Source: an uncultured delta proteobacterium
GTDB lineage: Bacteria > Myxococcota > Myxococcia > Myxococcales > Anaeromyxobacteraceae
Direction of reading: 5' to 3'
DNA: 64,000 nucleotides
Assembly (NCBI GenBank): GCA_963766715.1
Contig: CAVYBH010000008.1
Coordinates: forward strand, 416,001-480,000
Part shown: positions 19,059-21,055 of the stretch, piece by piece
Position numbering within the stretch: position 1 is the stretch's first letter
How the letters are laid out: the number at the start of each line of letters is the position of its first letter
Made by a program: the position numbers and the translations under genes
The notes under the pieces: generated by a model
What the model saw: the letters and a program-made list of their open reading frames with translations, nothing else
Told to the model about the DNA's origin: nothing
Databases searched by the model: none

Positions 19059-21055
19059 ATGCCATTTCACTTCACTCCCGGGGTCCGCGACGCGGAGACG
19101 AACGCCCGTCGCGGGGCCTTCGTGACCCCGCACGGCCGCGTCGAGACGCCCGCCTTCATGCCGGTGGGGACCCGCGGATCGGTGACCGGCCTCACGCCGG
19201 ACGACCTCCGCTCCCTGGGAGCCGGGATCGTCCTCGCCAACACCTACCACCTGCTGCTCCGCCCTGGCCTCGAGTCCATGCGCCGCCTGGGCGGCCTGCA
19301 CCGCTTCATGGGATGGGACCGGCCCATCCTCACCGACTCGGGCGGCTTCCAGATCTTCTCGCTCCCCGCCGAGCGGACCCTCACCGAGCAGGGAGCCCGC
19401 TTCCAGAGCTACATCGACTGCCGCTACCACCTGCTCACGCCGGAGTCCTCGGTGGCCATGCAGGAGGCCATCGGCTCCGACGTGATGATGGTGCTCGACA
19501 TCTGCCTGCCCTCGACCGCCGGCGAGAGCGAGGTGCGCGCCGCGATGGAGCGGACCCACCGCTGGGCGCTGCGCAGCCTGGCGGCCCGGACGAACGGCGA
19601 GCAGGCCCTGTTCGCGATCGTGCAGGGCGGCCTCTCGCCGGAGATGCGGGCCGAGTCGGCCGGCTTCCTGTCCCAGCACCCCTTCGACGGCTTCGCCATC
19701 GGCGGCCTGGCCGTGGGCGACACCCGGACCGAGCGCTTCGACGTGATGGGGCTCGCCGCGGGCCTGCTGCCGCGCGACCGGCCCCGCTACCTGATGGGCG
19801 TGGGCACGCCGCCCGACCTGCTCGAGGGCATCGCCCAGGGCGTCGACATGTTCGACTGCGTCATCCCCACCACGCTGGCCTGGCAGGGAACCGCCTTCAC
19901 CGGCAGCGGGCGCGTCCGGCTCACCCGGGCCGAGCACAAGCACGCCGACCTGCCGCTCGACCCGGCCTGCGGCTGCTCCACCTGCCAGCTTCACGGCCGC
20001 GACTACCTGCACCACCTGATGAAGTGCAAGGAGCCGCTCGGACCGCGCCTCCTCTCCATCCACAACCTGCGCCACTACCTGGACCTCATGGCCTCGGCCC
20101 GCGTGGCCATCGACGAGGGGCGCTACGGCCCGTTCATGCGCGAGACCCTGGCCGCCATCGACCGGCACGAGCACGACCCCAGCCGCCGCGCGCCGGGGCG
20201 ACGCGCCTCGCCGCCGGCCTCCCTCGCCCCGGTCACCCCGGGCGTCCGCTTCGAGATCGTGGCCACCTCGAGCGGCGCGCCGTCGGTGCGCGACGCCGAG
20301 GCGGGCGAGGTGATGCACCCGGTGATCGGCGCGACGGTCGAGTCGGAGCGGCTCTACGTCGCCCAGTCGCGGCTCCCGGAGCGGCTGCTCGAGCCGGGCC
20401 CCGGACCGCTCGTCCTCTTCGACGTGGGCCTGGGCGCCGCGGGAAACGCGCTGGCCGCCATCCGGGCGGCCCGGAACGCGAAGGCCGGGTCGCCGGGCGC
20501 TGGCCGTCGTCAGCTTCGAGCGGGAGCTGGGGGCGATCGAGCTGGCCTGCTCCGACGAGGGGGCGCTCCGGCTCGGCTGGTCCGCCGAGGAGGCCGCGGC
20601 GGCCCGGAGCTTGATGCGGGACGGGCGCCACGAGGAAGAGGGGCTCACCTGGGAGCTCCGGCTCGGCGAGGCCCTCGACCGGCTGGACGTCGAGCCGCGC
20701 CGCGCCGACGTCGTCTACTGGGACCCCTTCTCGCCCAAGGTGAACGGGGCGCTCTGGACCGCCGGCGCCTTCTCGCGCCTGGCCGCCCGCTGCGCGCCGG
20801 GCGCGACGCTCTTCACCTACTCGACGGCCACCGCCGTCCGGTCGGCGCTGCTCCTGGCCGGCTTCGTGGTCGGGCAGGGCGACGCCTCCGGCCCCAAGAT
20901 GGAGACGACCGCGGCGGCGCTCCCGCCGTCGCTGCCAGCCCGGCCCCTCGATGCCCGCTGGCTGACCCGGCTGCGGCCGGTCCTCGGCGCCGTTCCCGTC
21001 GGATGCCCCCGGCGACGCGCTCGCCCGGATCGCCGCCCTTCCGCAGTTCCGGTAG
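19059..21055 (+). CDS. tgt: tRNA-guanine transglycosylase fused to an MnmC/MnmD-like SAM-dependent methyltransferase; apparent frameshifts near 20495 and 20975-21010
   Basis: TGT motifs [47 protein letters not shown] and Zn site CGCSTC; then in frame [18 protein letters not shown]; after the shift [15 protein letters not shown] and [17 protein letters not shown]. Confidence 0.88.

Follow-up and report, generated by a model that had tools for sequence, protein, structure and literature searches.

A paralogous TGT joined to an MnmC2-like methyltransferase in myxobacteria and other bacteria, a candidate two-step writer of N-methyl-preQ1 in RNA

Results

The window, by which we mean the whole stretch of 64,000 nucleotides that was analysed, contains at positions 19059 to 21055 a gene in which a transglycosylase (TGT) domain is joined through a proline-rich linker to a methyltransferase domain of the MnmC2 fold. 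The end of queF lies at window positions 1-67 (G000:C8:415681-416067), 19 kb upstream of the fusion. The features of the gene are as follows.

19059..20160, plus strand: TGT domain (residues 1 to about 367), a member of the paralogous clade (TIGR00430, PF01702, clade placement, model of orthologue L005)
19335..19337, plus strand: Asp93, corresponding to Z. mobilis Asp102, catalytic (alignment to 1ozm; 66/66 in the clade)
19497..19505, plus strand: Asp147-Ile-Cys149, corresponding to Asp156 and Cys158 of the guanine/preQ1 pocket (Asp 65/66, Cys 63/66)
19704..19721, plus strand: GLAVGD, corresponding to Gly230, Leu231, Ala232, Val233, Gly234 and position 235, preQ1-type pocket
19854..19856, plus strand: Asp266, corresponding to Asp280, nucleophile (66/66 in the clade)
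19866..19889, plus strand: PTTLAWQG, in which Arg286 is replaced by Thr and Arg289 by Trp (alignment, clade counts)
20161..20250, plus strand: flexible interdomain linker (low pLDDT in the orthologue model; length differs among relatives)
20251..20490, plus strand: initial portion of the methyltransferase, which continues the TGT reading frame
20485..20491: site of a single-base insertion (first frameshift), which is probably an assembly error
20492..20973, plus strand: main part of the methyltransferase (SFE, WDPFSP, TYS), in the +1 frame as assembled (PF05430, NF033855)
20974..20974: site of another single-base insertion (second frameshift), likewise a probable assembly error
20975..21055, plus strand: C-terminal extension typical of TGT-linked methyltransferases, with the stop codon

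The TGT frame, as well as the third-position GC signal, is unbroken through the linker and the first methyltransferase segment, which contains DVGLGAAGN (20421-20447). A preliminary description of this DNA had the TGT running in frame into the methyltransferase, which holds for the linker and this first part but not for WDPFSP (20719-20736) and TYS (20815-20823), which are in the +1 frame as assembled, nor for the last 26 residues and the stop codon (21053-21055), which are in the +2 frame. Its observation that there is no stop codon in any forward frame from 20030 to 20310 is correct but says little in DNA of 72% GC. L005, the closest intact relative (84% identical), lacks one base that the window has at about 20491 and another at about 20974. 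The first (placed at 20485) is missing from the contigs of close relatives in runs X1, X2, and X3, and the second (20974) from those in runs X1 and X3. Moreover, of the 15 orthologous genes tested in this assembly, 5 are broken across reading frames, and so are the queA and queC genes of this genome. Because close relatives are intact and other genes of the assembly are split in the same manner, the two one-base indels, judged against the relatives, are most likely assembly errors, and there is only a small chance that the fusion is a pseudogene in the window strain. The fusion is real despite the shifts in the assembled letters. The alternative of two separate genes, which the preliminary description had named as the outcome that would speak against it, is rejected for the window's family. 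Assembled contigs of an RNA run (X17) also span both domains, although contigs cannot show transcription. Elsewhere in the window, the genes for a transketolase (12272-14579), an NAD synthetase (16290-18624), and a SUI1/YciH-like protein (18638-19026) all look frameshifted, like the fusion; these shifts are probably assembly noise.

That the TGT is complete, as had been claimed, is borne out by a TIGR00430 score of 434.7 bits (cut-off, 306.75), a PF01702 match, and the presence of the Zn ligands. The separate canonical tgt for which a search had been proposed is found on contig C13 of the window genome in queA-tgt-yajC; the fused TGT is a separate, extra copy, about 50% identical to the ordinary TGT. 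A second TGT match exists in all 28 paralogue-bearing genomes of the window's order and in all 10 module-bearing genomes of a scan of named genomes, in which the second copies have both of the arginines discussed below. Automatic database names for the fusion proteins mention Tgt only. In a tree of 244 TGT domains (FastTree, with no bootstrap or topology test, rooted on one eukaryote-like row), all 46 fusions fall within one clade of 66 domains (SH 100, stem 0.28), which supplies the phylogeny of fused TGTs that the preliminary description had called for.

The catalytic core and the base pocket are conserved in this paralogue clade. With residues numbered as in Z. mobilis TGT via alignment to 1ozm, D102, S103, Q107, Q203, A232, M260, G261, D267, and D280 are present in all 66 members, D156 and V233 in 65 each, and C158 in 63. 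The window TGT has the residues that characterize Tgt (D102, D280, S103, D156, Q203, G230, and the Zn site) together with the preQ1-type pocket C158, L231, A232, and V233, each found in 63 to 66 of the 66 clade members; the Cys and Val noted in the preliminary description are thus confirmed and extend across the clade (63/66 and 65/66, respectively). The catalytic and preQ1-selecting roles of these residues are described in the available parts of PMC5699537, PMC3074131, and PMC6165067. At position 235, the window TGT has Asp in place of the usual Glu235 (clade: Glu 47, Asp 19). The enlarged pocket formed by V158 and G233, given in the accessible text of PMC5699537 as the criterion for queuine-inserting eukaryote-type TGT, is absent from the window TGT, where C158 and V233 are kept. 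The dimer-interface residues F92, Y330, H333, and E339 and the stem-binding basic residues at E. coli K292/R320 are largely conserved in the clade (for these roles, see PMC13416341, section 7, and, as far as its text was available, 10.1101/2020.09.01.277731).

The residues next to the anticodon are another matter. Arg286 and Arg289, which we take to read U35 and its phosphates while D267 reads U33, are each present in only 1 of the 66 clade members and never together, compared with 177/178 and 178/178 domains outside the clade, and none of the fused TGTs read carries both. The replacement of PTRxARNG by PTTLAWQG noted in the preliminary description is correct, and the loss of the arginines extends to nearly the whole clade. 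Further changes concern V282, which is Ile in 50 members, K52, which is retained in 12/65, and position 304, which is basic in 64/66 of the clade versus 22/178 outside it. The window TGT has Thr, Trp, and Thr at the positions of R286, R289, and K52; the last of these contacts U35 in Tgt (10.1101/2020.09.01.277731). Because Arg286 and Arg289 were lost in nearly the whole clade, RNA recognition beside the anticodon is, on the evidence of the alignment, remodelled. The paralogue would then be an active preQ1-type enzyme whose substrate is a tRNA-like loop and which reads the base following the target guanine differently or less strictly. The basic residue gained at position 304 might replace the lost contact, so that the target need not differ.

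The methyltransferase part of the window scores 73.8 bits with PF05430, over the cut-off, and 62 bits with NF033855, whose cut-off is 136. The methyltransferase domain of the intact orthologue reaches 75.6 bits with the latter model, all four linked-clade members tested reach 69-79 bits, and a true MnmC2 (L180) reaches 239. The closest solved structure by both sequence and fold is A. aeolicus MnmC2 (3vyw), to which the model of a split orthologue (L143) fits with a TM score of 0.72. No variation is seen in the SAM-site and active-site motifs across the 24 aligned linked domains, which also have motifs of their own, including GE(V/I)MH, and a C-terminal tail missing from the MnmC and MnmC2 rows compared. 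The linked methyltransferases separate from MnmC and from stand-alone MnmC2-like genes in a FastTree phylogeny, in which there was no bootstrap or topology test, one row (L262) was wrongly cut (38% filled), and several long branches meet. In the window's family, the domain is under purifying selection, with dN/dS of 0.14-0.46 in 7/7 pairs as estimated by a simple counting method on high-GC sequences. Decay is seen in P0138, P0147, and P0148, where the methyltransferase domain has degenerated and the TGT catalytic residues are retained. Stand-alone members of the linked clade (L254, L255, L256, L258, L260, and L266) have no adjoining TGT and no common neighbours; the six genomes that carry them also have a fusion, or part of one, as well as the shorter MnmC2-like gene of the G063 order.

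The structure model of the intact orthologue L005 (pLDDT 91, pTM 0.61) consists of two well-folded domains and a disordered linker, in which pLDDT falls below 50 at residues 372-374 and 378-396; its TGT domain fits Z. mobilis TGT at about 1.3 A rmsd. A complex prediction for the split TGT and methyltransferase of L143 gave a score of 0.00, which speaks neither way.

The fusion is present in 16 of the 61 genomes of the window's order (13 intact, one cut by a contig end, and two frameshifted, including the window gene), and the TGT paralogue and methyltransferase exist as separate genes in another 11. Among these 11 split pairs, the genes are adjacent in 6, separated by one gene in 2, 10-15 kb apart in 2, and on different contigs in 1; the methyltransferase thus accompanies the paralogue even where the two genes are unlinked. 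Over the 61 genomes, both genes occur in 27, the TGT paralogue only in 1, the methyltransferase only in none, and neither in 33. For this count, methyltransferase presence means a strong PF05430 match; weak matches (about 30 bits or less; 10 rows) were left out, and the three that were read look like the spermidine synthase type. The 33 genomes were scored as paralogue-free because the TGT was read or placed in the tree (11 genomes) or adjoins queA (22 genomes). Since the genomes are kin, the co-occurrence counts overstate the association, although presence is mixed in 5 of the 9 families sampled. The single exception, G003, has a TGT paralogue near a contig end and no detected methyltransferase. 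The methyltransferase is kept in 10 of 11 sampled members of the window's family, and its presence in the order is much the same with MnmG (9/22 genomes) as without it (18/39).

The module is not confined to this order. A database search gave 399 matches; the 120 matches listed all carry both Pfam domains, and several are named from Anaeromyxobacteraceae. The scan of named genomes, which returned 80 of at least 600 tgt loci, identified nine fusions and one adjacent pair, in Verrucomicrobiota, Bdellovibrionales, Riflebacteria, Acidobacteriota, Steroidobacteraceae, and myxobacteria. Only 2/81 genomes of the G068 family have the module, a distribution which suggests that it may move as a unit by transfer. 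In the named-scan genomes, the linked domain is the sole strong MnmC2-like match in 9/10, with MnmM in 0/10 and MnmG in 8/10. In the G063 order, 7 of 10 genomes have, besides the fusion, a distinct MnmC2-like gene, which clusters with MnmC, and a search for MnmG was positive in 6/6 tested; the two separate genes tested score 95 and 120 bits, below the cut-off of 136. At L279-L282, the shorter MnmC2-like gene of this order has nearby a prfC-like gene and a gene for a small protein that resembles Tsr3 weakly (PF04034, below the cut-off).

Few genes accompany the module. In 7/7 fusion loci of the G063 order (L273-L278 and L036), a DTW gene is no more than about 2.5 kb from the fusion, and in L161, a member of the window's family, one is directly upstream; none was called in the other 27 loci with listed genes, whose nearest neighbours were scanned with Pfam, or beside the window gene. 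An ABC-F-like ATPase adjoins the split TGT in several genomes of family f6. Comparison of the neighbours revealed no third gene conserved with the module across groups, and no tRNA gene travels with it: tRNA genes were found in only 2 of the 30 sources scanned, and these differ.

MnmC methylates an aminomethyl group that MnmE-MnmG has put in place (PMC9976899, in the part available). In the window's family (f1), MnmG was found in 0/60 genomes and MnmE in 0/12, and a search of the window genome for MnmG gave no match; a loose search of this genome and four single-contig relatives gave only short matches of less than 40 bits. The MnmE helical domain, Elp3, and MnmL are absent or far below the cut-off in 5/5 genomes of the family, four of them single-contig, and MnmM was found in none of the 61 genomes of the order, so the separate mnmM that had been suggested as a check was not found. 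Since neither MnmG nor MnmE, MnmM, MnmL, or Elp3 was found where searched, the ordinary MnmC2 substrate, nm5(s2)U34, is probably missing from this family. MnmG and MnmE were also not found in the sampled members of families f3 (0/9) and f8 (0/11) of the order. Among the 22 MnmG-bearing genomes of the order, 13 have neither a strong MnmC2-like match nor MnmM. Two archaeal controls, M. jannaschii and Sulfolobus, have PF05430 with MnmE and MnmG not over the cut-off, from which it follows that MnmEG-free uses of an MnmC2-like fold exist.

The genes for preQ1 and queuosine, on the other hand, are common in the order (queF, 59/61; queC, 5/5 tested; queA, 61/61), and to judge from them preQ1, the other aminomethyl base, can be made in these genomes. 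One relative has two full queC matches (G036:C1:1923981-1924604 and 3862711-3863331). The window genome has 47 tRNA calls, including SeC and Gly(ACC), the latter being unusual and possibly an error; Asn(GTT) and Ile(GAT) tRNAs were not found in its assembly, which is 84.6% complete.

Discussion

To our knowledge, the 7-deazaguanines of bacterial tRNA are known at G34 of the four GUN tRNAs, where they end as queuosine or its derivatives. We put at about even the chance that the fused module carries out two successive steps that leave N-methyl-preQ1 in RNA, probably at G34 of a tRNA that does not belong to the GUN set. In the first step, the extra TGT would excise guanine from an RNA loop in a U-G context and insert preQ1 made by the cell. 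In the second, the MnmC2-like domain would use SAM to methylate the inserted preQ1 on its aminomethyl nitrogen. The N-methyl-preQ1 nucleoside should then no longer enter the QueA route to queuosine, which the ordinary tgt and queA would still serve. Position 34 is the site of action of both parent enzymes, whose substrates each carry an aminomethyl group, which would make a hand-off from one domain to the other natural. If this is what the module does, its target is probably G34 of tRNAs outside the GUN set or of a wider set, the GUN tRNAs being less probable and another RNA improbable; methylation quite probably follows insertion, and methylation of the free base is the less favoured order.

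Several lines of evidence argue for N-methyl-preQ1 formation: the TGT is an extra copy that keeps the preQ1-type pocket and has a changed recognition patch; the methyltransferase follows the paralogue and not MnmG, and MnmG and MnmE were not found in the family; the preQ1 genes are present, and the methyltransferase is under purifying selection and has the MnmC2 fold; and 7/10 genomes of the G063 order hold a separate MnmC2-like gene besides the fusion. N-methyl-preQ1 itself exists in phage DNA, as reported in the available portion of PMC10516641. Counting against it are the decayed methyltransferases, G003, the stand-alone members of the linked clade, and the archaeal controls, as well as the named-scan genomes, in which the linked domain is the sole strong MnmC2-like match in 9/10 and MnmG is present in 8/10, which suits an ordinary role there. 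The preliminary description had proposed preQ1 insertion with N-methylation, or action on a different RNA substrate; sequence and distribution support this as the best reading, which we regard as a prediction.

The module may, though this is unlikely, be coupled but perform other chemistry, with a new target, a methyl group placed elsewhere than on the preQ1 amine, or an inserted base that is not preQ1; the acceptor would be a different tRNA base with an amine (DTW proteins, for example, make acp3U) or a neighbouring nucleotide. The linked methyltransferases do form a separate subfamily with its own motifs and tail and with scores of 69-79 bits against 136, stand-alone members of their clade exist, and a DTW gene accompanies the fusion in all seven loci of the G063 order and precedes it in L161. 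DTW genes were not called near the other 27 listed loci or the window gene, however, the TGT pocket is of the preQ1 type, and MnmC2 methylates an aminomethyl group at position 34, which is the same chemistry at the same site.

Two independent ordinary enzymes on one polypeptide, namely, a spare Tgt and an MnmC2 making mnm5s2U34 (in this family by an MnmEG-free route), had been offered as the simpler alternative. We consider this quite improbable. The TGT is over the TIGR00430 cut-off, the linked domain is the sole strong MnmC2-like match in 9/10 named-scan genomes with MnmG in 8/10, and the fusion appears among the MnmC2 fusions in genomes with MnmA/E/G reported in the available text of Jaroch et al. 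(10.1101/2023.12.21.572861). The explanation nevertheless fits the window's family poorly, where the fused TGT is additional to the ordinary one and its recognition patch is changed, and where MnmG (0/60), MnmE (0/12), Elp3, MnmL, and MnmM were not found where searched. Nor does it account for the 13 of 22 MnmG-bearing genomes of the order that do without a strong MnmC2-like match and MnmM, for the co-occurrence of TGT paralogue and methyltransferase when unlinked, for the lack of both arginines together in every fused TGT read, or for the separate MnmC2-like gene beside the fusion in 7/10 genomes of the G063 order.

It is very unlikely that the TGT paralogue does the chemistry while the methyltransferase-like domain serves mainly to bind RNA or SAM and to determine the target: the decayed domains in P0138, P0147, and P0148 and the paralogue of G003, which has no detected partner, would suit such a role, but the invariance of the SAM-site and active-site motifs (24/24) and the purifying selection speak for catalysis. 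Least probable of all, and remotely so, is a DNA-modifying pair like phage DpdA and DpdM that puts N-methyl-preQ1 into DNA, for even though extra tgt copies have proved to be DNA enzymes before (PMC5699537, in part), mdPreQ1 is known (PMC10516641, in part), and the spread is patchy (e.g., 2/81 genomes in the G068 family), the fused TGT is about half identical to the ordinary TGT and over its cut-off, the dimer-interface residues and the basic E. coli K292/R320 positions are mostly kept, the Pfam scan of neighbours named no Dpd or restriction gene, and the methyltransferase has the MnmC2 fold, which DpdM does not.

Besides the published fusions described below, three known systems resemble the module. 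Bacterial Tgt (Z. mobilis, E. coli; TIGR00430) shares its fold, catalytic aspartates, preQ1-type pocket, Zn site, and dimer interface, whereas the fused TGT is a second copy outside the queA operon, tied to a methyltransferase, and belongs to a clade that lost R286/R289, often changed V282/K52, and gained a basic residue at 304. MnmC2/MnmD (A. aeolicus 3vyw, the N-domain of E. coli MnmC, and NF033855) shares the fold, the glycine-rich SAM motif, and the D-x-F-S-P motif of the linked methyltransferase, which differs by scoring below the family cut-off, by forming a separate clade with the GE(V/I)MH motif and C-terminal tail, and by being kept in genomes without MnmE/MnmG. Phage DpdA and DpdM, as far as PMC10516641 describes them in its available text, likewise combine a transglycosylase with a preQ1 N-methyltransferase and yield the base proposed here, but the target is DNA, DpdM, a cysteine-rich metal protein, has an unrelated fold, and DpdA is far more diverged from Tgt. 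The fused gene has instead a Tgt-like score, an MnmC2 fold, and no dpd gene among its Pfam-scanned neighbours.

The preliminary description had presented the fusion as a candidate new system. The fusion itself is already in print: TGT/MnmC2 fusions with the same domain pair (PF01702 and MnmC2) appear in the work of Jaroch et al. entitled 'Alternate routes to mnm5s2U synthesis in Gram-positive bacteria' (10.1101/2023.12.21.572861), where, in the text available, they occupy one sentence with no function proposed and with no mention of the paralogy, the split forms, or the lost arginines. The genome set described there required MnmA/E/G, and MnmEG-free carriers fall outside it. In the literature searched, largely without subscription papers, we found no study of the function of the fusion and no report of N-methyl-preQ1 in RNA, and the accessible part of a 2026 compendium (PMC13602947) shows no such RNA modification. 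What is new here is the MnmEG-free family, the co-occurrence of the split forms, and the clade-wide residue counts. The fusion joins known kinds of enzyme, probably in a function that is new.

MnmE and MnmG are described as universally conserved in bacteria (PMC9976899, in the part available), and their absence across the whole family is of note by itself; like the negative searches in the sampled members of f3 and f8, it bears on the modification of U34 of tRNA Lys, Glu, and Gln in these bacteria. If N-methyl-preQ1 formation is confirmed, the annotation of hundreds of proteins named plain Tgt would be corrected, and RNA labelling would gain a second handle in a TGT of different loop specificity. 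Where a second TGT has both an altered recognition patch and a methyltransferase of its own, as in myxobacteria, Bdellovibrionota, Verrucomicrobiota, and other groups, we predict a new nucleoside, which probably lies on other tRNAs.
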